Positions 23,819-63,464 of a DNA stretch of 64,000 nt are shown here, piece after piece (the stretch's first letter is position 1; every line of letters begins with the position of its first letter). The DNA lies in the IMG/VR virus record IMGVR_UViG_3300042471_000228, positions 28,522 to 92,521 of that record, one strand, 5' to 3'. The translations under genes and the position numbers were made by a program. The notes under the pieces are model-generated. The model searched no databases and had not been told where the DNA came from. It worked only from the letters and a program-made list of their open reading frames with translations. The DNA comes from a virus.

Positions 23819-24484
23819 TTATCTAAGTAAGCTTTGTTTATCAGCTGGTGCAGGATCTGTATTTATCTGCATGCTTCTCATGAAGTCATTTATAACCTGT
23901 TGTTCTATTTGTGCAAATAAATCACCTGGAATATTTAAGTATTGTGATTGAACAGATTGACACTCATTATCACAAGTTAATCCGGAAATCGATCCTTCAA
24001 ATATTCCATCTATCTGAGCACTGTCCCATTCTACATTAGGAATGAATAAGTACCCATCTAATAACCAGTAATACTTTTTCTTATTATATTTGAATCCAGA
24101 TGTTTTTTGTAATGACGTGTATAACTGAGGAGTGGTTCTAAATACTTCAACTGATCCATCTATTGATGCGACAGTTCTTAGTAATGGACCATTAGATCCT
24201 TCTAATATAGAGGGCAGCTTTTCTTTTGACCTTTTAATTTTAACACCAGACTGAACCTCACAACAAGCGGCAACTTTATCCACCTCAATAAGATCAATGC
24301 AAGGTATTCTTTTATATAAAGAATTAAACTTTGCTTGCGATGTTTGTCCATCTTGACGTTTGATAAACATCTTAGCATACTTAAGTATGTTACTGTAAAT
24401 CAAACGGTCTGTGATAAAAGAATCAGCATCAACAGCTTTGATTCCATTACGTACTCGTGATATTGCTTCAGCGATTGTATTCAT
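23819..24484 (-). CDS. Tail ring/neck protein
   Basis: 221 aa; CIDLIEVD...RSKEKLP...YYWLLDGYLFI; synteny. Confidence 0.7.
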   Translation of the reverse strand: MNTIAEAISRVRNGIKAVDADSFITDRLIYSNILKYAKMFIKRQDGQTSQAKFNSLYKRIPCIDLIEVDKVAACCEVQSGVKIKRSKEKLPSILEGSNGPLLRTVASIDGSVEVFRTTPQLYTSLQKTSGFKYNKKKYYWLLDGYLFIPNVEWDSAQIDGIFEGSISGLTCDNECQSVQSQYLNIPGDLFAQIEQQVINDFMRSMQINTDPAPADKQSLLR

Positions 24485-25047
24485 TATTCAAATTCATTAT
24501 AGTCTTCAGAGACATTTGTTTTCTTTCTAGTTTTTTGTTTATGGTAGTTAGATATATAATCCTTACCATTAACCTCTACATACATTTTCCAGTTCTCTGG
24601 AAATACCTTAGCGACCAATCGCTTAAACTCACGAGCTGGTTTAAATATCCACAAAGTACTATCTTCTATTCTATACTTTACATTAGTGTTAGTATAGAAT
24701 ATCTTACCCAATTGACCATCGGTTGTCCAGTTCTTGTGCATTACTTTTACACCGTACTTAATAGACTTTCCAAAGTCAATGTTTTCTTTCTGAACTAAGT
24801 GACAACTTCCTATAAACACTCTACCAATACCTTGTGATAGATCTACTCCTTCTCTCGTATTTATAATAGCATCAACGACTTTCTCTTTGTTAAAGTTGCG
24901 GATGATCTTTGTTATCTCACTCTTCTTATACTTTTTAAACTCAGGATACTTTTCATAGAGTGTCTTGAAAAATGTTTCATCATGCACCATCTTTCTGGGT
25001 ACTCTATATCGAGGTTTATTAAGATTAGGTTTTCTAAAGTTCTCCAT
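24484..25047 (-). CDS. IHF/HU-like basic protein of the crAss-like structural module
   Basis: 187 aa, basic; GVDLSQGIGRVFI...IDFGKS...FKPAREFKR. Confidence 0.65.
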   Translation of the reverse strand: MENFRKPNLNKPRYRVPRKMVHDETFFKTLYEKYPEFKKYKKSEITKIIRNFNKEKVVDAIINTREGVDLSQGIGRVFIGSCHLVQKENIDFGKSIKYGVKVMHKNWTTDGQLGKIFYTNTNVKYRIEDSTLWIFKPAREFKRLVAKVFPENWKMYVEVNGKDYISNYHKQKTRKKTNVSEDYNEFE

Positions 25048-25113
25048 AGTCCTTATTATAATTTACAAAATTTATTCGAGGTTTGAAAGATACAACGCAT
25101 TTAAGTGATATCC

Positions 25114-25142
25114 AAAACGAAAAACCCCAGTTTCCCGGGGTT
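25114..25142 (-). terminator. Intrinsic terminator
   Basis: Minus strand AACCCCGG-GAAA-CTGGGGTT followed by TTTCGTTTT. Confidence 0.85.
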
Positions 25143-25151
25143 CTTCTTTGG

Positions 25152-25181
25152 TAGTCACGCTAAACCAACAAACGTAGACTA
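25152..25181 (-). ncRNA. Candidate 3'-UTR stem-loop RNA with loop UUUGUUGGUUUAG
   Basis: TAGTC-ACG/CGT-A-GACTA stem; the 13-nt loop is complementary to the AAACCAAC leader motif of four genes; directly followed by a terminator. Confidence 0.5.
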
Positions 25182-25182
25182 T

Positions 25183-25731
25183 TTATAAATTAGTTGTAAA
25201 TGATATAACTGCAGTAATACTAAATTGAATATCGCAGTTAGTAGTAAGTCGAGCGTAATAAGTTGTTCCAGCGGTTAAATTCTGAACTGTAATTGAGTTA
25301 TTGGTTATGTTTGAAATAGTACTGATTTCATCAAATGTTGGTGTAGTACTAATTTCCAATGTATATGTATCACCTAATTCTATTGTATTAGTCCAGCTAA
25401 ATACAACAGCTGTAGTACCTAGGTAACTTAAATGTAAGTCTGTAGGACATGGACAAACAGCGTCCCAAGATGTTAAAGACAGCATCTGATATACTTGTTC
25501 TAAAGTAGTATTAGGAGTAATCTCTAAACCTGTAAATCCAAGACCATTTATAGCATTGAAAATAGTATAGTTAGGTCTGTGTTTAACACACGTATCTAAA
25601 ATAGTCTCACTACAAGGACTAGGATCTGGAAACAATGGATCTGGTGGACACTGTGGTACAAATGGTACTACCACCGGAGTGTCTTTACAACCACAAGTGT
25701 TGTTTGATGTATTACATTTAGTGCAAGCCAT
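25183..25731 (-). CDS. Cys-rich protein with C-terminal FN3 domain
   Basis: CPTDLHLSYLGTTAVVFSWT...NLTAGTTYYARLTTNC. Confidence 0.7.
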   Translation of the reverse strand: MACTKCNTSNNTCGCKDTPVVVPFVPQCPPDPLFPDPSPCSETILDTCVKHRPNYTIFNAINGLGFTGLEITPNTTLEQVYQMLSLTSWDAVCPCPTDLHLSYLGTTAVVFSWTNTIELGDTYTLEISTTPTFDEISTISNITNNSITVQNLTAGTTYYARLTTNCDIQFSITAVISFTTNL

Positions 25732-25746
25732 GATTATCTTTAGTTA

Positions 25747-27255
25747 TTATAAAGTTGTTATTGGTATAAATGCTCCGTATCTTACGTATGTTCCGATTTG
25801 AGTACCAATTCTTATGTTATAATTTGTACTAGAAGCTAAACCTAAGAATTGACCAAGTGTCTCTAAAGCAGACTGAGGATTTACAATAGATATTGCAGAA
25901 CCAACAGGTGTAGTTGCTGTAGAATCATATAACTGAACATGGAATGTTTTAGATAATGATGGAGCACCTGGATCTGTAAAACTGAACGCTATATCATTTG
26001 CTGCAGGAATCAATGTCAAAGTTGGAATCATAGCTGCATTTTCAAAGAATACAGATATTGTTGACGTACAAGCTATTGAACTACTTCCTGTTTCAATACA
26101 GTATGTAAGAATAACATTGTAGTCTGTCCATTGTGTAACAGATGATGTACTAAGATTAAGTGAAATAGGTGTAGCATTAATAGTTGAAATAATACTTGGT
26201 GTAGTATTATACATGTTGTTATACATGTCTTTTACTGTAAGTACTGTACCAGTTGTGCAGTCCGTAGATGTAGATGGAATACTACCTAACAAAGGAATTG
26301 TCAATGTAGGTGCTGCATATATTAATGATCCGAAGTATATATCAACAGTGTTACATACTAATGAATCATTACAGCATGTATTTAAAATATTATCTACAGC
26401 GGATCTAAGATCACAAACTGTTAACCATAGATTGTTAATAGCATCTGCTGCAGATGCATACTGACCACCAGCAACCCAACCGGAAATATTAGACATGATC
26501 CCGTTTCCGTATAATGTAGGAGAACTATCTAGATTACTACACTGTTTTTGAATAGCTGAATAAACTTTTGAAGGATCTCCTACAGCACTTTTCAATTGAC
26601 AAAATTGTTGCTCTAGTGTTTGGCAAAATATAGTTACTTGAACTACATTTCCTGGGAAAAGACAATTTGATAAAGCACTTGGAATTACAGGTGCATAGTT
26701 ATTAATCCAGTTTTCAACTGATAATAAACGAGCACCCTGATTAGCAACTGTAGATTGAAGTGCAGAAAACTGAGTCGATAAAGTACAAACTTTTGTTCCT
26801 ATTGCAGCAGCATAGTCTGCAATATTCATGGTTGTTATATTATTTCCAAAGTTGTCTGTGTATTGAAAACATTGTGCTACTGTTATAACACAATCTGGAC
26901 AGTTACCAGTAGCTTGAACATTAGTTGTTAAATTAGTACTTGTTGGAGGTGTAGTTACTACAGTTTGATTACAACAATTATTAAGTTCACATAGCTTGTC
27001 AATCAAAAATTGAACAAGTTGTTGAAAGTTATCAGGTTTAGGACAAACTGGTTCAAAGCATGTTAAGTCATAATTTAATATGTCAGTTTGTTCTAAAACT
27101 GTACACAATTCCAAAGCAAGCTTATAAGTAACATCACTTACAGTATCACCTTTCTGAAGATTGATACACGCGATATCTGGTCCTTGCCAAGTAACACAGT
27201 TACTTGATATAGGATTGCAGTTCTGCTGATTATTTGAAGGTTTTACAGGAGTCAT
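25747..27255 (-). CDS. Cys-rich coiled-coil fibre-like protein with C-terminal FN3-like domain
   Basis: 502 aa; SSNCVTWQGPDIAC; heptad segment; GLASSTNYNIRI. Confidence 0.6.
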   Translation of the reverse strand: MTPVKPSNNQQNCNPISSNCVTWQGPDIACINLQKGDTVSDVTYKLALELCTVLEQTDILNYDLTCFEPVCPKPDNFQQLVQFLIDKLCELNNCCNQTVVTTPPTSTNLTTNVQATGNCPDCVITVAQCFQYTDNFGNNITTMNIADYAAAIGTKVCTLSTQFSALQSTVANQGARLLSVENWINNYAPVIPSALSNCLFPGNVVQVTIFCQTLEQQFCQLKSAVGDPSKVYSAIQKQCSNLDSSPTLYGNGIMSNISGWVAGGQYASAADAINNLWLTVCDLRSAVDNILNTCCNDSLVCNTVDIYFGSLIYAAPTLTIPLLGSIPSTSTDCTTGTVLTVKDMYNNMYNTTPSIISTINATPISLNLSTSSVTQWTDYNVILTYCIETGSSSIACTSTISVFFENAAMIPTLTLIPAANDIAFSFTDPGAPSLSKTFHVQLYDSTATTPVGSAISIVNPQSALETLGQFLGLASSTNYNIRIGTQIGTYVRYGAFIPITTL

Positions 27256-31050: not shown

Positions 31051-31191
31051 TTACTTTTTTTGTGTTGTAGGATTTAATAGTTTACTCTTCATGCTATTAA
31101 TACACTTAGAACATCCTACTTTTCCGTCTGGTGTTACTCTTTTTTGACATCCGCAACTCATTGTTGCTTTACAATTTGGACAAGTACTCAT
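31051..31191 (-). CDS. 46-aa Cys-rich microprotein MSTCPNCKATMSCGCQKRVTPDGKVGCSKC... (missing from the track)
   Basis: Fills the intergenic gap; AAACCAACAAAT leader; 6 Cys. Confidence 0.7.
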   Translation of the reverse strand: MSTCPNCKATMSCGCQKRVTPDGKVGCSKCINSMKSKLLNPTTQKK

Positions 31192-31211
31192 ATTTGTTGG
31201 TTTTTAAAGGG

Positions 31212-31769
31212 TTAACATGTTTCACATCCGCAGTTACAACTAAGCTTAGTCAATCTAGACATTACGTAGTTATAGATGTCCATTCCTTGTTTAGGATTGT
31301 GGCAATACTCTACTTTTGCTTTTGCTGCTTCTAACATAGTTTGTAGCAAATTTAGTTCACGCATCTTATCTTTCAAAGGTTGAATAGGTTCACAGTTAGG
31401 AACATCTAAACAACAGAGTATAGTTTGAATCTTAGCTAGTGCTGCAGTAATACGTAAATGATTGTATTCTACATATACGTATTCATTAGGAGCTACGCTG
31501 TATTTAATAGCATATATACCGTCGGGAATACTATTACGAACAGTTGTGCAGTTTGTTGTTTGTAAATCCAAGTCACAAGCTGTAAGACTCAAATTGAATC
31601 CGGAACTTGTTGGATAGTAAGCAACAGCGTTTGTGTATCCTGGTGCAAGAACTTCAAGAGTTAATGATCCAGGAGTCATACTAGGATCGTATGTACTAGT
31701 GTCTACCACTCTGAGAATACAAGTATTCAAAGTGTTAGGCATATCTAAAGATAAAAGATGTTTTGCCAT
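31212..31769 (-). CDS. Cys-rich structural (tail hub-like) protein
   Basis: 185 aa; IPDGIYAIKYSVAP motif. Confidence 0.6.
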   Translation of the reverse strand: MAKHLLSLDMPNTLNTCILRVVDTSTYDPSMTPGSLTLEVLAPGYTNAVAYYPTSSGFNLSLTACDLDLQTTNCTTVRNSIPDGIYAIKYSVAPNEYVYVEYNHLRITAALAKIQTILCCLDVPNCEPIQPLKDKMRELNLLQTMLEAAKAKVEYCHNPKQGMDIYNYVMSRLTKLSCNCGCETC

Positions 31770-36874: not shown

Positions 36875-37888
36875 CTAATTATTCCAATACTTTTCTACAG
36901 TTTTTGTAACTTCCATCAAAACTGATTCATTTAAAGGATTCTTCATATACTCAACAACTTCTGCAATATTACGTCCTAGTAATGATCCGGTCTTTTTATC
37001 GTAGATCATACCATCAGCTTTTGCTGTAAATACTTTATAATAAATTGCATCTTTAACAATACACTTCAATTTCAAAGTCTCCATGTCAAGATTACAAGTA
37101 TCGATAAACTCTTGAGCAGCACGCTTAGCATTACGCTCAGCACCATCACCCATTACAAACTTATCCATCATATCATAGATAACATCAATAGGAGTTGACT
37201 TACGATAAGTAGCACCAGCAACGTCCACCAACTTACCTACATAGAATAACTTATTAGTATTCTTGTCAGAAAGTTTTTGAAGTTCTGCAAGAGCTTTGTT
37301 ACGAAGTTTCTTAAGCTCTGTTCTTGTAGAAGCTGTATCTTCGTATCTATCTAAATAGAATTTAGGAGCACGTGGTCTAGATTTTGCATCTTCATATGAC
37401 TTTGAAATAATACTAAAACCACCTGCTTCAATTGCAAATATTTTAATAAGATCATAAGGATCTTTTGTAGGATCAAGATTTACTGGAGTATTACCACAAC
37501 GCATTGTGATCTTTGACCAGAAGTCGTCATTATCCGGACGTAGTAATTTTACTTTATTCCAGAATTCCACATCGTCAGGATTAATAACATTTGCTGCAAG
37601 TTGTTTCTCTAACTCACATACAACGTTTCTGATTTCTCTAACTTTAGCTTCTTTTACTTCAGGATCCTTAATCAATTTGATCTCAGGAGCAAATTCATTA
37701 AGACCTGTAACATAACGCTTGATTCCGTTATGCTCAATACAAGCTAATTGTTCTTCGTGATAAACACCTTCAAATAGTGCTAGTCCATAATTTTGAAGAC
37801 CCATATTATCAACGGACTGATTGATGTAAGGTTTAACTGCAATAGGACCGCGTTTAGAGATCGGTTCCTGTACCATTGTGAAACTCAT
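36875..37888 (-). CDS. Conserved crAss-like protein downstream of the major capsid gene
   Basis: 337 aa; synteny with the capsid gene. Confidence 0.65.
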   Translation of the reverse strand: MSFTMVQEPISKRGPIAVKPYINQSVDNMGLQNYGLALFEGVYHEEQLACIEHNGIKRYVTGLNEFAPEIKLIKDPEVKEAKVREIRNVVCELEKQLAANVINPDDVEFWNKVKLLRPDNDDFWSKITMRCGNTPVNLDPTKDPYDLIKIFAIEAGGFSIISKSYEDAKSRPRAPKFYLDRYEDTASTRTELKKLRNKALAELQKLSDKNTNKLFYVGKLVDVAGATYRKSTPIDVIYDMMDKFVMGDGAERNAKRAAQEFIDTCNLDMETLKLKCIVKDAIYYKVFTAKADGMIYDKKTGSLLGRNIAEVVEYMKNPLNESVLMEVTKTVEKYWNN

Positions 37889-37923
37889 AATTTTGTTGGT
37901 TTTTTATGTTTGACAAATATAGT

Positions 37924-39593: not shown

Positions 39594-39614
39594 TTTTATT
39601 TATTTATATAAGGG

Positions 39615-40856
39615 TTATCTTTTAAAAAAGTTGTCGTTTCTTGGAATTCTACGTTGACGTGTTTCTTCGCGCTCCACTACAGGAGTACTAGATTGCATCT
39701 TCGCTTGTTCCGTTTTTAATTGTCTCACTGTTTTCTCTACAGTTTGTTGTTGACCTTGGTTTCTAATTTTACCTTTGTAACCATCTGGATCAGCTAACAA
39801 CCATAAAGCTTCAGCAATCAAATCGTGGCGAGGTTCAACATACTGATACTTCTCTAGCAAGTGACCTAACAAATTAGTAGGTCTTCCTGACATAGAGGGG
39901 TACTGAGGTTGAACCAAACCTGAATAAAGCATAGATTGTGTTTTCTTATCTAGCTTTACACCGTTTAACTCACCGGGTTGTAGTGTAGTGTAAACATTCT
40001 GCATATAGTGTTGTGCAGCTGCTTCTTGTTGCTTACGGATTTTCTCCTGTTGTGCAACTTTCTGAGCTACTACTTGCTCCTGCATTTTGTCCAACTTTGG
40101 TTTGAACTTCATAGCTTTCGCTTCAAGTTCACCTCTGTCTTTCCAACCTAAGATCTCTTCATCAATATCATCATCGTTTCCAAAGTTAGTTGCTCTCAAA
40201 TACTCACGTAGAATTACTTCTTGGTCACGCTCGTTTTTAGGATTCAACTCTCTATGTTCTTCAACCTCTGATAAGATCTTAAACAAACCTTTTAGATCCT
40301 GACCTCCATCTGATACATACTTTGCAGCATATAACAGTTCATCAGGAAGAGAGTCATAAAACTCTTGAGGAGTTTCTTGACGAATTCTGTTCTCAACTTC
40401 GTTAAAGTTTGCATCAAGCAACTCTTCAAAGTCTTTTACAGAATACTCTTCTAAAGGTTTGTCATCATCAAATGGTACAATTTTACCAGCTTCGATCATT
40501 TTATTGAAAACTTCTGCAAGTCCACTCTTTTCGATCTTTGGTCTACCTGCTGATTTCTCAACAGGAGCATCGTCTTTAGGACCAGAGAAGTCATCTTCAG
40601 GATCAGCTTCTTTGATGATAGCATCTACATCTACCTTTTTTTTCTTTGACTCATCGTCATCATCGTCTGAGTCGTTGTCAATAAATGATAGATCTGGTGA
40701 AGTTGAACTGAAGATATTTGGTTTAGCTTCAGTCTTCTTACCATCTCCATCAGGAAGCATCACGTTTTCTGCTCCCGGGGTTCCTAGAATTTCATCTAGG
40801 TTGATTTCTACTTCTTCTACAGAGGTAGAATCATTGTTTTGGTCTGTCGTACTCAT
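39615..40856 (-). CDS. Acidic scaffold-like protein
   Basis: 413 aa; very acidic N-terminus then helical; lies between portal and capsid genes. Confidence 0.7.
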   Translation of the reverse strand: MSTTDQNNDSTSVEEVEINLDEILGTPGAENVMLPDGDGKKTEAKPNIFSSTSPDLSFIDNDSDDDDDESKKKKVDVDAIIKEADPEDDFSGPKDDAPVEKSAGRPKIEKSGLAEVFNKMIEAGKIVPFDDDKPLEEYSVKDFEELLDANFNEVENRIRQETPQEFYDSLPDELLYAAKYVSDGGQDLKGLFKILSEVEEHRELNPKNERDQEVILREYLRATNFGNDDDIDEEILGWKDRGELEAKAMKFKPKLDKMQEQVVAQKVAQQEKIRKQQEAAAQHYMQNVYTTLQPGELNGVKLDKKTQSMLYSGLVQPQYPSMSGRPTNLLGHLLEKYQYVEPRHDLIAEALWLLADPDGYKGKIRNQGQQQTVEKTVRQLKTEQAKMQSSTPVVEREETRQRRIPRNDNFFKR

Positions 40857-40958
40857 AAAGTTGGTTTAGCTTTACATTAATAATATACACAAAATTATAA
40901 CTTTAAACTTTATAGATTAACCATATAAAAAAATTAATCTAGATACTATAGCTAAAAG

Positions 40959-48693: not shown

Positions 48694-49045
48694 CTCTTAC
48701 GAATTTATAGTCCAACAGTATGTTACCAGAAGTCTGAATTCTTAAATCAGGATTCAACTTGATCAGTTTATTATAACCTCCGTTTTTAATAACTAGATCT
48801 TTCTTTTCTGCTTTAGTAATGGCACTTCTAACAGATTGACTGCTACCAAAAATCTTGTTCTTGGTAGCAGCATCACAAAATTCTGTTAGTGGTTGTTCAC
48901 CACCTAAAGCTAAAAAAGTTAAACAGTTCAAGTCTAAATCTGATACGTTCAGCTCTCTTAACGTGCAGTGGGTAGCTATTTGAAAACGAACAATGTTCCA
49001 AAGATCCATCCGCACGGTTTTACGTACCTGATTTACTTTAGCCAT
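48674..49045 (-). CDS. Winged-helix DNA-binding protein
   Basis: SSQSVRSAITKAEKKDLVIK...IKLNP. Confidence 0.6.
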   Translation of the reverse strand: MAKVNQVRKTVRMDLWNIVRFQIATHCTLRELNVSDLDLNCLTFLALGGEQPLTEFCDAATKNKIFGSSQSVRSAITKAEKKDLVIKNGGYNKLIKLNPDLRIQTSGNILLDYKFVRVESENS

Positions 49046-49305
49046 TACTTCTGTTTTTTAAGTGAGCGCGGTTTAGATTCTTCTTCAATCTCTTCTTCTT
49101 CTGGAGTAGGTGCATAAATAGAAGCAAGTTTTTGTTGAACTAATGCTCTACGTAAACGTTGTTCATCAATATCAGAGATAAGAGTTTCGTACTCTTTCTG
49201 AACATTTAGAAATTCCATTTCTTTTTTGTAGTACTGAAGCATTTCAGTTTTTCTTGCTTCGTACTCCTCCTGACTAATTTCAGGATTCATTGATTCAGTA
49301 TTCAT
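49045..49305 (-). CDS. Coiled-coil hypothetical protein
   Basis: 86 aa; own promoter and AAACCAAC leader. Confidence 0.6.
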   Translation of the reverse strand: MNTESMNPEISQEEYEARKTEMLQYYKKEMEFLNVQKEYETLISDIDEQRLRRALVQQKLASIYAPTPEEEEIEEESKPRSLKKQK

Positions 49306-49328
49306 ACAGTTGGTTTTAAAGTTTAATA

Positions 49329-49359
49329 CAAATATATGTATAAAACTTTAAACTCCAAA
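49329..49359 (-). promoter_or_regulatory. Consensus Bacteroidota promoter TTTG-N19-TATATTTG
   Basis: Exact TTTG/TAnnTTTG match. Confidence 0.8.
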
Positions 49360-60073: not shown

Positions 60074-60523
60074 TTATATTTTAAAGTAATTATATAACGT
60101 ATACCATTGTGCTGCTAGTGTATTATCTGCAATATAAGTAGCACTTGTTATTACACCAGCAGCAATTCCGTTTGCTGGTTTGATTGTTTGAGAATATGCA
60201 ACATCACCGTCTACAGCTGAACCAGCTGCGGGTTCTACAATAACATCATCAACACTCATAGACTGGATACTAATTTTATATCCGGAGTTACCATCACCTA
60301 CCTGGGGTAAATAAATAGTAACACTTCCTGCACCAACTGTAACAGTATTAGCAACAATAAAAACAGTCTCTAATGAAGTTAAGTCTGTCCATGTAATATT
60401 ATAACTTGTAACCGCTTCCGCATAAGGATCTAGTATAACCACTCTGGGTACACTAGGATTGGGTGGTGGTTCAAATGGTAGTTGAATCGTTCCACCTCTT
60501 ATTAAAAACGGATTGTTCGGCAT
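60074..60523 (-). CDS. Small fibre-type beta protein
   Basis: VTIYLPQVGDGNSGYKISI motif. Confidence 0.55.
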   Translation of the reverse strand: MPNNPFLIRGGTIQLPFEPPPNPSVPRVVILDPYAEAVTSYNITWTDLTSLETVFIVANTVTVGAGSVTIYLPQVGDGNSGYKISIQSMSVDDVIVEPAAGSAVDGDVAYSQTIKPANGIAAGVITSATYIADNTLAAQWYTLYNYFKI

Positions 60524-61095: not shown

Positions 61096-61293
61096 ATGAA
61101 AACAATTAAGTTATTTAGTTGGTTCTTCGGAACCTTTTTCGCATCATTGTTAATACTATCAATGTGCATCGCTCTTGTCACGTGGACACCTGTCTACAAC
61201 GTAATTCACTCTGGTTGGAGTGTGTTCACAGTATTGACCTCGTTATGTATGGGGTTATTCGTCATTGCTGAGTTGGAGGATACCATCTCGTAG
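61096..61293 (+). CDS. Early two-TM membrane protein
   Basis: 65 aa with two hydrophobic helices. Confidence 0.75.
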   Translation: MKTIKLFSWFFGTFFASLLILSMCIALVTWTPVYNVIHSGWSVFTVLTSLCMGLFVIAELEDTIS

Positions 61294-61368
61294 TGTGTAG
61301 AGGAGAGAGCACCCTTCGGGGTGCTTTTTTAGCTATCAATAACACCTTAATGCTTCAAATTATACACT

Positions 61369-61674
61369 ATGCAAAACAATCAGCCCATTCTATCCTGCGC
61401 GGGTAGAGACAGTGTCAACATCGACGCTGTATTACTTCAACAGTTGTTGGAGAATTTCACACCAAATCTCATCGGTGCCAAACAACGTGCGGGTCTACTC
61501 GAACTTGATTTGCGTCTAATTGCCAAAGGTGAGTATGGTGATGATTCCTTGAAAGTATTCAAGGATATTATTACTAAAGAGTTCCTTTTCATCCAACTAA
61601 TGGAAGCATCTCGTCTTGCGAGACAGGTACCTGCGGGTTGCGAAGAAGTTCCATCTGTTGAAGATGATTTGTGA
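61369..61674 (+). CDS. Early hypothetical protein
   Basis: 101 aa; cassette leader; acidic tail VEDDL. Confidence 0.75.
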   Translation: MQNNQPILSCAGRDSVNIDAVLLQQLLENFTPNLIGAKQRAGLLELDLRLIAKGEYGDDSLKVFKDIITKEFLFIQLMEASRLARQVPAGCEEVPSVEDDL

Positions 61675-61873
61675 ACAAACTAAAAACAAGCGAGGCACCC
61701 TTAATTGGGTGTCTTGTTTTTTTATCTACTAATAACACCTTAATGATTAAAAATTGATCAAAAATTGATTAAAACAAACCCTAGAAGCGGGGTTCAATAG
61801 AGATATAATGCGAAGTGAAACTCTATTATTTTTATCTAATAAGAACACCGTAATAGTTTAAACTCTATATACT

Positions 61874-62074
61874 ATGGAACCAACACCATTATCACCAGCA
61901 GAACGCGCAGAGTTATTGCGCAACATTAACATGAAACAGGAGATGTTATTCGGTATACCGATTACTCCTGAAATGTACGACGAGGTGTTGCACGACGCAA
62001 CAGATTCTGCGCTGTTCGGAATCGCACTCGCGTTAACGCTAATGTTAATGACTAAGAGAAGAGAGGGGATGTGA
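61874..62074 (+). CDS. Early small protein with C-terminal hydrophobic helix
   Basis: 66 aa; cassette leader. Confidence 0.7.
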   Translation: MEPTPLSPAERAELLRNINMKQEMLFGIPITPEMYDEVLHDATDSALFGIALALTLMLMTKRREGM

Positions 62075-62164
62075 TCCCCTTTTCTCAAAGGTTACGCAAA
62101 GAGAGTACACTAATGTGCTCTCTTTTGTCTACGAATAACACCTTAATAATTCAAATCTATACAT

Positions 62165-62374
62165 ATGATAATTGTAACTGAATACAGAAAGATTTTCATC
62201 TTAGCAATGCTTGATGAAAATGAAAAAATTGTAGACACTCGTCGTTATACTGACTATGGTCTGGCAATGCACTGCAAAAAGAAATTTATCGAAGAAAGTG
62301 CTTATCATTCCGTAACACTAATTACGAAAGAAGTTCCTCATAGAGGATTCACGATTCAAGCAACTCCGTGGTAA
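62165..62374 (+). CDS. Early hypothetical protein
   Basis: 69 aa; cassette leader. Confidence 0.7.
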   Translation: MIIVTEYRKIFILAMLDENEKIVDTRRYTDYGLAMHCKKKFIEESAYHSVTLITKEVPHRGFTIQATPW

Positions 62375-62438
62375 CAACAGCACCCCTTAGGGGGTGCCTT
62401 TGTCTATAACTAACACCTTAATAATTCAAATATACACT

Positions 62439-62816
62439 ATGATTAAAACAATCACTATTGAGTGTTCATTAACGGATTTAATGGACGTACTCAACGCAAC
62501 AGGTAACGCGAAAGTTGCCACAGAAATCTTGAATGGTACTTATGTAGCACCTGATTATCCCAAGGAAATCATCGGTGAGTTCGAGACCAAGAAAGAAATA
62601 CATATCGTAAATGGTGATGAAGAAGCGATAGAAACCAAAATACCTGTTATATATACAGCAATTGGTTTAAATCCATTCAACGAATCAATAGGCTATCTGT
62701 ATGTAGATAGGTGGAATCAAACGTGCAATCGTGAAATGAGTCTGCGTGCATGGATGAAACTTGATGCAAAACACGGTTCACCGTATGCATTAGCAGCGTG
62801 TGACGACTGTATGTAA
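62439..62816 (+). CDS. Early hypothetical protein (start revised to 62439, MIKTITIEC...)
   Basis: The track's start lies inside the hairpin and motif; the 62439 ATG fits the fixed leader. Confidence 0.75.
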   Translation: MIKTITIECSLTDLMDVLNATGNAKVATEILNGTYVAPDYPKEIIGEFETKKEIHIVNGDEEAIETKIPVIYTAIGLNPFNESIGYLYVDRWNQTCNREMSLRAWMKLDAKHGSPYALAACDDCM

Positions 62817-62996
62817 TGTAATGAAAAGCACCCCTTAATTGGGGTGTTTTTCTATTATCAAAATGCGATTCTGTCACCGGTAGAATACCAGTGTTTACGG
62901 GAAAAACACCTTTTGTGTGGTGTGCCTGCGTAACCAGTATTCTAATCTACTCTTTTTTGTCTATTAATAACACCTTAACGATTAAAATTATACATT

Positions 62997-63464
62997 ATGT
63001 TCTACAAAATCAATTACACAGGGATTACTGTTCCGGGAGGAATGGACCCAATCACGAAAGAGCGTCGTGACGCAAAGCATTATTTCACAATCGTCGGTAT
63101 GGACGAGGAAACCATCGCACTATTCGCATCAGAGCAGATAGATAAGAATGGTTCCAATTTCTACAAGACCGACGAAAAGACGGGTTTACCGTTGTTCATT
63201 TCTCACGGATTTCAGCACGACGGAGAAATGTACGTCACACGTGCAAGCAAACCCAATAAGAAGGGTGTTCACAGTTGGTATGCGATTTCTTCGGAGGAAG
63301 AATTCGATACACTGTGTAAGGAACGTCCGCATATGCTCGTGTCCGAATTCGGAGGTAACGAACTGCGACGTCTTGCTGTGAAACGAATCAGAGACCGTGT
63401 GAGAGCGGTAAACACAACGGGTACAACCGTCGTGACCGAGAACACCGCGGAAGACGCGCTGTAA
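62997..63464 (+). CDS. Early hypothetical protein
   Basis: 155 aa; cassette leader. Confidence 0.8.
   Translation: MFYKINYTGITVPGGMDPITKERRDAKHYFTIVGMDEETIALFASEQIDKNGSNFYKTDEKTGLPLFISHGFQHDGEMYVTRASKPNKKGVHSWYAISSEEEFDTLCKERPHMLVSEFGGNELRRLAVKRIRDRVRAVNTTGTTVVTENTAEDAL

Follow-up and report, generated by a model that had tools for sequence, protein, structure and literature searches.

Control of the phage's own genes by a phage-encoded structured RNA is known from the c4 RNA of phages P1 and P7, the exposed loops of which pair with the translation-initiation region of phage genes and exert their control after transcription (PMC12197685). The c4 RNA belongs to the immunity region of temperate phages, it is cut from the leader of the operon that it controls, and its two loops are directed against one target region. 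A second type is represented by the bacterial 3'UTR-derived sRNAs (CpxQ, SroC, DapZ, MicL type), which are host-encoded, mostly Hfq-dependent and act through linear single-stranded seeds. Their usual layout is a seed-bearing 5' hairpin followed by a terminator. CisR is a recent phage-related example of such 3'UTR-derived sRNAs (PMC13250501). In the RNA-OUT/RNA-IN pair of IS10 and the CopA/CopT pair of plasmids the two partners are cis-encoded and show long, full complementarity. CrAss-like phages count among the most abundant Bacteroidota phages, and their presumed hosts start translation without Shine-Dalgarno pairing. Initiation in Bacteroidota was described to depend on unstructured, adenine-rich leaders, with A favoured at positions -3, -6, -12 and -13 (PMC6847099).

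The stretch of DNA analysed here, hereafter the window, is the right-hand 64 kb (64,000 nucleotides) of a 92,521-bp phage genome of 35% G+C, the genes of which are located nearly all on the minus strand. At the end of its tail-module operon, comparative sequence analysis identifies a new conserved structured RNA motif, absent from Rfam, and, at four virion genes, a conserved tag complementary to its near-invariant loop, both spread over a large family of phages. The features of this locus are the following:

25183 to 25731, minus strand: open reading frame of the 182-aa gene, the last gene of the tail-module operon, with the hairpin in its 3' UTR
25152 to 25181, minus strand: conserved RNA hairpin with an 8-bp stem, one bulge and the 13-nt loop UUUGUUGGUUUAG, 1 nt past the stop codon of the 182-aa gene
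25114 to 25146, minus strand: intrinsic terminator with a GC stem, a GAAA loop and a U-run, 5-11 nt past the hairpin, with an A-rich spacer between the two
24484 to 25047, minus strand: 187-aa gene, the next gene, which starts at 25047 behind a promoter-like AAATTTTG box

The 182-aa protein has a Cys-rich N-terminus, a fibronectin type III domain (Pfam fn3, 1.7e-6) and a weak PHROG tail match. Its gene ends with a TAA codon (25183-25185, minus strand), and in the relatives, too, the hairpin comes after an orthologue of this gene (177-188 aa, 40-74% identical). The hairpin reads TAGTCUACG-UUUGUUGGUUUAG-CGUGACUA on the minus strand, where TAGTC-T-ACG (25173-25181) pairs with CGTGACTA (25152-25159), leaving one bulged U, and the loop occupies 25160-25172; two extra weak pairs are closed within it by RNAfold, so that 9 nt stay open. 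The folding energy of the 25100-25190 region is -32.2 kcal/mol (z = -5.1). The first-pass annotation had placed a hairpin with a 13-nt loop and a terminator right after the stop codon of the 182-aa gene on this strand, which is borne out by both sequence and fold. In the window and similarly in the relatives, the hairpin is found between the stop codon of a gene and the intrinsic terminator of the same mRNA. All relatives likewise have, past the hairpin, a terminator which differs in sequence and shows compensatory changes, and the one at 25114-25146 would supply the 3' end of the hairpin RNA.

Other identities of the hairpin were considered as well. It was rejected as an intrinsic terminator, since it is followed by an A-rich spacer without U's and only the second hairpin fits this role. 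A 3' hairpin of a DGR target gene was rejected because the template repeat is absent (blastn of 25100-25760 against the whole genome returned the self match only), and a plus-strand ORF or promoter at this site was rejected because there is no conserved ATG. No conserved TAnnTTTG box was found directly upstream of the hairpin, either in the window or in the relatives. Scanning of 24000-26500 against Rfam with cmscan at E values up to 10 gave no match apart from three weak, unrelated ones. It was also observed that the bases past the 3' arm (25141-25153 on the minus strand of the window, and the corresponding bases of relatives) are A/C-rich (ACUAACAA, ACAACAAC, CAAACG) and resemble the target tag described below; in 5 of 24 relatives RNAfold prefers the pairing of the loop with this flank. 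This fold could be a self-masking alternative structure or simply a consequence of the terminator A-tract.

More than 550 relatives of the capsid protein are present in IMG/VR. Among the cultured phages the best capsid match is that of Leptolyngbya phage Lbo-JY46 with 27% identity, and a DNA search of the cultured-phage collection with 24484-27255 found no relative. In the nearest whole genome (G001), where the flanking proteins are 74-81% identical, the hairpin is 100% identical over 36 nt and the adjoining terminator has diverged with compensating changes. In the genomes G002-G006 the flanking proteins are 36-48% identical to those of the window, the gene order is the same, and the hairpin stands at the same place with a single change, which affects the bulged base. 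An apparent second copy of the hairpin in G006 falls within coding sequence and was rejected for this reason.

Since the G001-G006 set had been found through the loop sequence itself and was therefore biased, 80 loci were fetched by a profile of the neighbouring 187-aa protein. Approximately 75 of these 80 loci carry the hairpin at the syntenic site. By a strict test, 65 loci have a hairpin with this very loop and then a terminator upstream of the 187-aa gene, about half of them directly upstream and the others about 1.4 kb upstream, an extra gene being inserted. Five more were recognized by the covariance model R1, with slightly different loops, and a further five, with the hairpin farther upstream, were seen in whole records; of the remaining five loci four were incomplete at their ends and one was left unassigned. 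Judged from these comparisons, the loop is conserved far more strongly than the flanking proteins are.

The stem behaves differently from the loop. Altogether 37 distinct stems were found in the hairpins of the relatives, such as GUCUACG/CGUGAC, GUCGCAG/CUGUGGC, GUGGUGG/CUAUCAC, AGAGGG/CCCUCU, GGUGAUAA/UUAUUGCC and GCUGUGA/UCGCAGC. In a chimera test the native arms paired with a mean energy of -7.4 kcal/mol, against -2.3 kcal/mol when arms were swapped between hairpins. As stem lengths differ, the R1 and MAFFT alignments of the hairpins were misregistered, and a second covariance model was built from a gapless subset. In the alignment fitted to this second model (30 distinct sequences), which favours pairing somewhat, standard pairs occupy 89.4% of the cells compared to 59.3% after shuffling; the chimera test is independent of this alignment. 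The covariation score is 0.853 against 0.284 for shuffled alignments, none of 500 shuffles reaching the native value, and against 0.10-0.34 with slid partners. All seven stem pairs change on both sides, and the covariation of the stem, which the first-pass annotation had put forward as a check, was thereby found. Nearly all hairpins share the loop core UUUGUUGGUU(U), a few clades having the variants UUAAGUUGGUUU, UUUAGUUGGUUU or GUUGGUAU. A stem that varies with compensation around a fixed loop indicates a folded RNA in which the stem need only exist and the loop is read by its sequence; the hairpin is, from the covariation of its stem, a real RNA-level structure which displays its loop and is under strong selection.

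The complement of the loop was located on the minus strand in front of four genes:

40860 to 40870, minus strand: leader tag GCUAAACCAAC; the AUG of the 413-aa scaffold-like gene (40854-40856) follows after 3 nt; duplex energy -13.2 kcal/mol
37892 to 37902, minus strand: leader tag AAACCAACAAA, 11 nt; the AUG of the 337-aa gene behind the capsid gene (37886-37888) follows after 3 nt; -13.1 kcal/mol
31193 to 31203, minus strand: leader tag AAACCAACAAA, 11 nt; the AUG of the 46-aa Cys-rich peptide gene (31189-31191) follows after 1 nt; -12.9 kcal/mol
49309 to 49316, minus strand: leader tag AAACCAAC, 8 nt; the AUG of the 86-aa gene (49303-49305) follows after 3 nt; -10.1 kcal/mol

In the tag of the 413-aa gene, which precedes the capsid gene, 11 nt are complementary to the loop together with its closing base. 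Counting the flanking bases that match the loop, the gap between tag and ATG is 1-3 nt at the four sites, and the earlier claim of a loop complement 1-3 nt before four AUGs is exact in sequence (11, 11, 11 and 8 nt). The tag of the Cys-rich peptide gene lies inside an operon, in a 20-nt gap, and has no promoter box of its own. A count of the motif near start codons against the background had also been suggested as a check; on the coding strand of the whole 92.5-kb genome AAACCAAC occurs five times, and four of these copies sit 3-6 nt before an ATG. Positions within 6 nt of start codons make up less than 1% of the genome. The count of the 8-mer in the window is raised only mildly (7 against 2.7 expected). 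Chance placement of the tags is unlikely, and it is their placement at start codons, not their number, that constitutes the strong signal.

When the loop was compared by RNAduplex with the start regions of all 74 ORFs called in the genome (median -5.25 kcal/mol), the four sites ranked 1, 2, 3 and 5. The site ranked fourth, at the plus-strand gene at 61874, was a candidate fifth target and is not conserved in the nearest relative G001. Shuffled loops matched the native number of hits at a cut-off of -9 kcal/mol in 28% of trials, by which control a U-rich loop pairs loosely with any A-rich leader. Searches of the four target proteins against PHROGs and Pfam gave nothing except one sub-threshold SHOCT match, and the structure models of the 337-aa and 413-aa proteins are of low confidence (pLDDT 47 and 49). 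The 413-aa gene is called scaffold-like by its position and its helical prediction; the mostly helical model would fit a scaffold without proving one.

Three of the tags have a promoter-like box on their upstream side:

37914 to 37921, minus strand: TATATTTG box (TAnnTTTG); the tag of the 337-aa gene lies 11 nt downstream
40890 to 40897, minus strand: similar TAnnTTTG-type box, 22 nt upstream of the tag of the 413-aa gene
49329 to 49336, minus strand: similar TAnnTTTG-type box, 12 nt upstream of the tag of the 86-aa gene

TAnnTTTG is the -7 promoter type of Bacteroidota. From this known consensus the boxes are regarded as putative promoters, and a Bacteroidota host is presumed solely from the boxes and from leaders lacking Shine-Dalgarno sequences. 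Other genes behind TAnnTTTG-type boxes (24484-25047, 31212-31769 and 60074-60523, minus strand) have their ATG about 18-20 nt after the TTTG and carry no tag, and the leaders of the four tagged genes are longer than theirs. A second motif, TAACCCTT(A/T), was seen just upstream of the capsid start (39594-39614, minus strand) and of the tag of the Cys-rich peptide gene (31204-31212, minus strand); before the capsid gene it is kept in G002 and G004-G006 (AACCCTTAA). On the plus strand, six small genes at 61096-63464 of the window each stand behind a near-identical leader of about 32 nt (AATAACACCTTAATAATTCAAATCTATACACT, then ATG), which looks like the separate signal of an early-gene cassette.

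The conservation of the leaders was surveyed on 80 loci anchored on the capsid gene, these being the best 80 of more than 550 relatives and 81-96% identical. Among these best 80 loci, 54 of 62 distinct leaders of the scaffold-like gene and 42 of 52 distinct leaders of the gene behind the capsid gene have AAACCAAC at most 20 nt from the ATG, while none of the 63 capsid-gene leaders has it, which argues against the tag being a general signal of high expression. Taken together with the hairpin in about 75 of 80 loci, this is the co-conservation of loop and leaders which the first-pass annotation had suggested to look for. In G001-G006 the same four orthologous genes carry AAACCAAC by the start codon, with differing surrounding bases, so that a near-invariant loop core faces a complementary tag at four orthologous genes; for the Cys-rich peptide gene the tag is kept in G001 and G003-G006, and an exact copy of AAACCAAC was not found in G002. 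The start of the gene of about 86 aa (49045-49305 in the window) is apparently shifted 13 nt upstream in G002-G006 (MENQQ...), where the tag falls within codons 2-4 (AUG GAA AAC CAA CAA). The same RNA tag is thus non-coding in one clade and coding in another.

The two bases following the tag are A in 76-91% of the leaders, by which the leader consensus becomes AAAACCAACAA and complements the loop consensus along 11 nt. Apart from A, only three C's are conserved in the A-rich leader, and these stand opposite the three loop G's. Variant leaders can still pair by way of G-U wobble, namely AACCAGCAA in G008 and AAACCAAU in G017 and Lbo-JY46. The distance from tag to ATG is mostly 2-8 nt and that from tag to -7 box varies between 11 and 22 nt. 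Since the tag follows the ATG and not the promoter box, and since one copy is promoterless and another has moved into codons 2-4, the tag points to translation initiation and not to transcription.

The elements, their complementarity, their conservation, the pairing of the stem at the RNA level and the link of the tag to start codons were each established directly by the analysis. Antisense pairing of this 3'UTR loop with the initiation regions of four virion genes is the best reading of them, to which we assign a probability of roughly 0.55. According to this reading the hairpin would be a regulatory element of structured RNA, placed in the 3' UTR with which the tail-module operon ends, and its variable stem would serve only to display the invariant U/G-rich loop. 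The loop would form 8-14 bp with the tag (A)AAACCAAC(AA), three of them G-C pairs at the core, at target sites within about 15 nt of the start codons of the scaffold-like gene, the post-capsid gene, the 46-aa Cys-rich peptide gene and the gene of about 86 aa. Pairing would most likely block 30S loading, because ribosomes of the Bacteroidota type rely on an unstructured A-rich initiation region; the translation of the four genes might be turned down in this way as the RNA of the tail operon accumulates, and the tagless capsid gene would be left untouched. The active form could be an RNA of about 70 nt cut from the mRNA, comprising hairpin and terminator, or the 3' end of the full mRNA. We infer the pairing in vivo, its repressive direction, the action in trans and the timing from the arrangement described above. 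It should be emphasized that pairing of at least 11 bp within a closed loop of 13 nt is strained unless the stem opens; as the hairpin abuts the stop codon, terminating ribosomes would melt it.

The first-pass annotation had advanced the seed-loop antisense idea and, as its alternative, a decoy for an ACCAAC-binding protein. The decoy can be discarded, since the loop carries the complement of ACCAAC and not ACCAAC itself. The antisense idea stands insofar as the loop is kept, the stem covaries and the tag is found at the same four orthologous genes, but it meets a difficulty in the outgroup. Lbo-JY46 (PP438436.1, 91613-91641, minus strand) has the hairpin AUAUAAA-UUUGUUGGUUG-UUUAUAU with a terminator and the same loop core, in a syntenic position upstream of homologues of a 221-aa and a 301-aa protein. 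Its scaffold-like leader and its post-capsid-gene leader are without AACCAAC, and only one 73-aa gene upstream of the head genes has AAACCAAU (AAACCAAUAAAAAUG). A loop that is kept while two leaders are tagless suggests that the hairpin may have a function which does not need all the leaders; by this comparison the hairpin is of greater age than most tags or under tighter constraint, and it could have a role in its own right. The gene leaders of Lbo-JY46 are A-rich and lack Shine-Dalgarno sequences, which is unusual for a cyanobacterial host.

The main rival of the antisense reading, which the outgroup favours, is that two separately functional elements are complementary by coincidence; we regard it as unlikely on balance, yet well ahead of the explanations treated after it. 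The tag would then mark some of the virion genes for initiation, as an A/C-rich landing pad free of structure which is perhaps bound by the ribosomal protein bS1 or by a phage protein, and the hairpin would be an unrelated 3'-end element such as a protein site, a signal for RNA processing or stability, or one part of a terminator made of two hairpins. The need of Bacteroidota initiation for A-rich, unstructured leaders (PMC6847099) is compatible with such a pad; moreover, the tag is often in tandem duplicate in distant relatives, as enhancer-like elements can be. The lack of covariation between loop and leader points in the same direction, as no compensatory change was found between them, only wobble-compatible variants and small shifts of the pairing register. 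Compensation is not found because loop and tag are both near-invariant, and two such elements could be conserved for separate reasons. Relatives with tagged leaders and no hairpin, or the reverse, were sought, and both elements proved near-universal inside the family.

Coincidence has to account for several further observations. An exact complement of a given conserved 8-mer within a conserved loop of 11-13 nt has a chance of about 1e-4 (estimated from the genome base composition), or about 1e-3 to 1e-2 when a few dozen noticeable hairpins are allowed for (likewise an estimate), and the agreement extends to the 11 nt over which AAAACCAACAA complements the loop consensus. The capsid gene, presumably the highest expressed, lacks the tag in all 63 leaders. 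Furthermore, the adenine rule (PMC6847099) is about composition and individual adenines, and an invariant 8-mer with three fixed C's at only four genes does not follow from it. It is silent on both the conserved C's and the absence of the tag from the capsid gene. The simplest account is that the loop pairs with the start regions.

Pairing with a conserved host RNA, for instance rRNA, is considerably less probable. The tag could be a non-SD docking site with the loop as an rRNA mimic, or the loop could target a host RNA, and a loop kept down to 27% capsid identity would suit a highly conserved partner in the host. Neither GUUGGUU(U) nor AACCAAC is conserved in the 16S and 23S rRNA of 82 Bacteroidota rRNA operons, a comparison in which the Bacteroidota host is itself presumed, and the sole recurrent match is the D-loop of the spacer tRNA-Ile (AGUUGGUUAGAGC). 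Regarding this D-loop, GUUGGUU recurs in the Bacteroidota rRNA spacers (n=6) as part of GCUCAGUUGGUUAGAGC, to which the loop end of the window, GUUGGUUUAG, is similar; the likeness is probably a coincidence, since the loop ends differ in other clades. The least probable explanation, a DNA-level site at which a phage DNA-binding protein reads AAACCAAC/GTTGGTTT at four near-promoter positions and, inverted, upstream of the 187-aa gene promoter, has in its favour that a TAnnTTTG box stands 11-22 nt upstream of three of the four tags and that the next promoter-like box comes about 60 nt downstream of the hairpin. Against it, covarying arms around a fixed loop denote a single strand that folds, which is not the pattern of an operator; it is from the ATG, and not from the promoter box, that the tag keeps its distance; and one copy is promoterless and another within coding sequence.

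The antisense reading can be extended to the whole family. Across these crAss-like phages, represented by hundreds of environmental contigs, one invariant 3'UTR loop might be a master antisense regulator which ties the translation of head-assembly genes to the output of the tail operon by RNA-RNA pairing on SD-less starts, and which survives to 27% capsid identity; for this wider claim we consider the odds a little below even. If true, it would be the first post-transcriptional regulon described for crAss-like phages; literature searches on these phages found neither an sRNA, nor post-transcriptional control, nor this motif. If the pairing is real, the phage would balance its head and tail components through a single 30-nt element, and this would provide a compact, portable switch for initiation regions of the Bacteroidota type. 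Even if it is not, a conserved structured RNA with a near-invariant loop is left which wants an explanation.

Comparing the locus with the known systems, the hairpin, on the antisense reading, shares the regulatory logic of c4, a loop directed against the start regions of the phage's own genes, and like c4 it is a phage-encoded structured RNA (PMC12197685). It has neither sequence nor model similarity to c4 (Rfam C4), there being no Rfam match up to E 10; unlike c4, it has a single loop, stands in the 3' UTR of a tail operon and has four dispersed targets in the virion module of a crAss-like phage. With the bacterial 3'UTR-derived sRNAs it has in common the position between a stop codon and its own terminator, without a promoter of its own, and a short conserved seed complementary to several start regions. 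It differs from them in that its seed is in a hairpin loop, it is phage-borne with presumed Bacteroidota hosts, and its processing from the mRNA is hypothetical. The display of a loop by a stem, the loop starting the pairing with a start region, is shared with IS10 RNA-OUT/RNA-IN and with CopA/CopT, as is a free stem beside a constrained loop; unlike those systems, the complementarity is here 8-14 nt and the targets are located 6-24 kb away. Finally, the tag resembles the adenine-rich initiation regions of Bacteroidota (PMC6847099) in being A-rich, free of G and U, provided with A near -6 and -12/-13, and compatible with efficient initiation.
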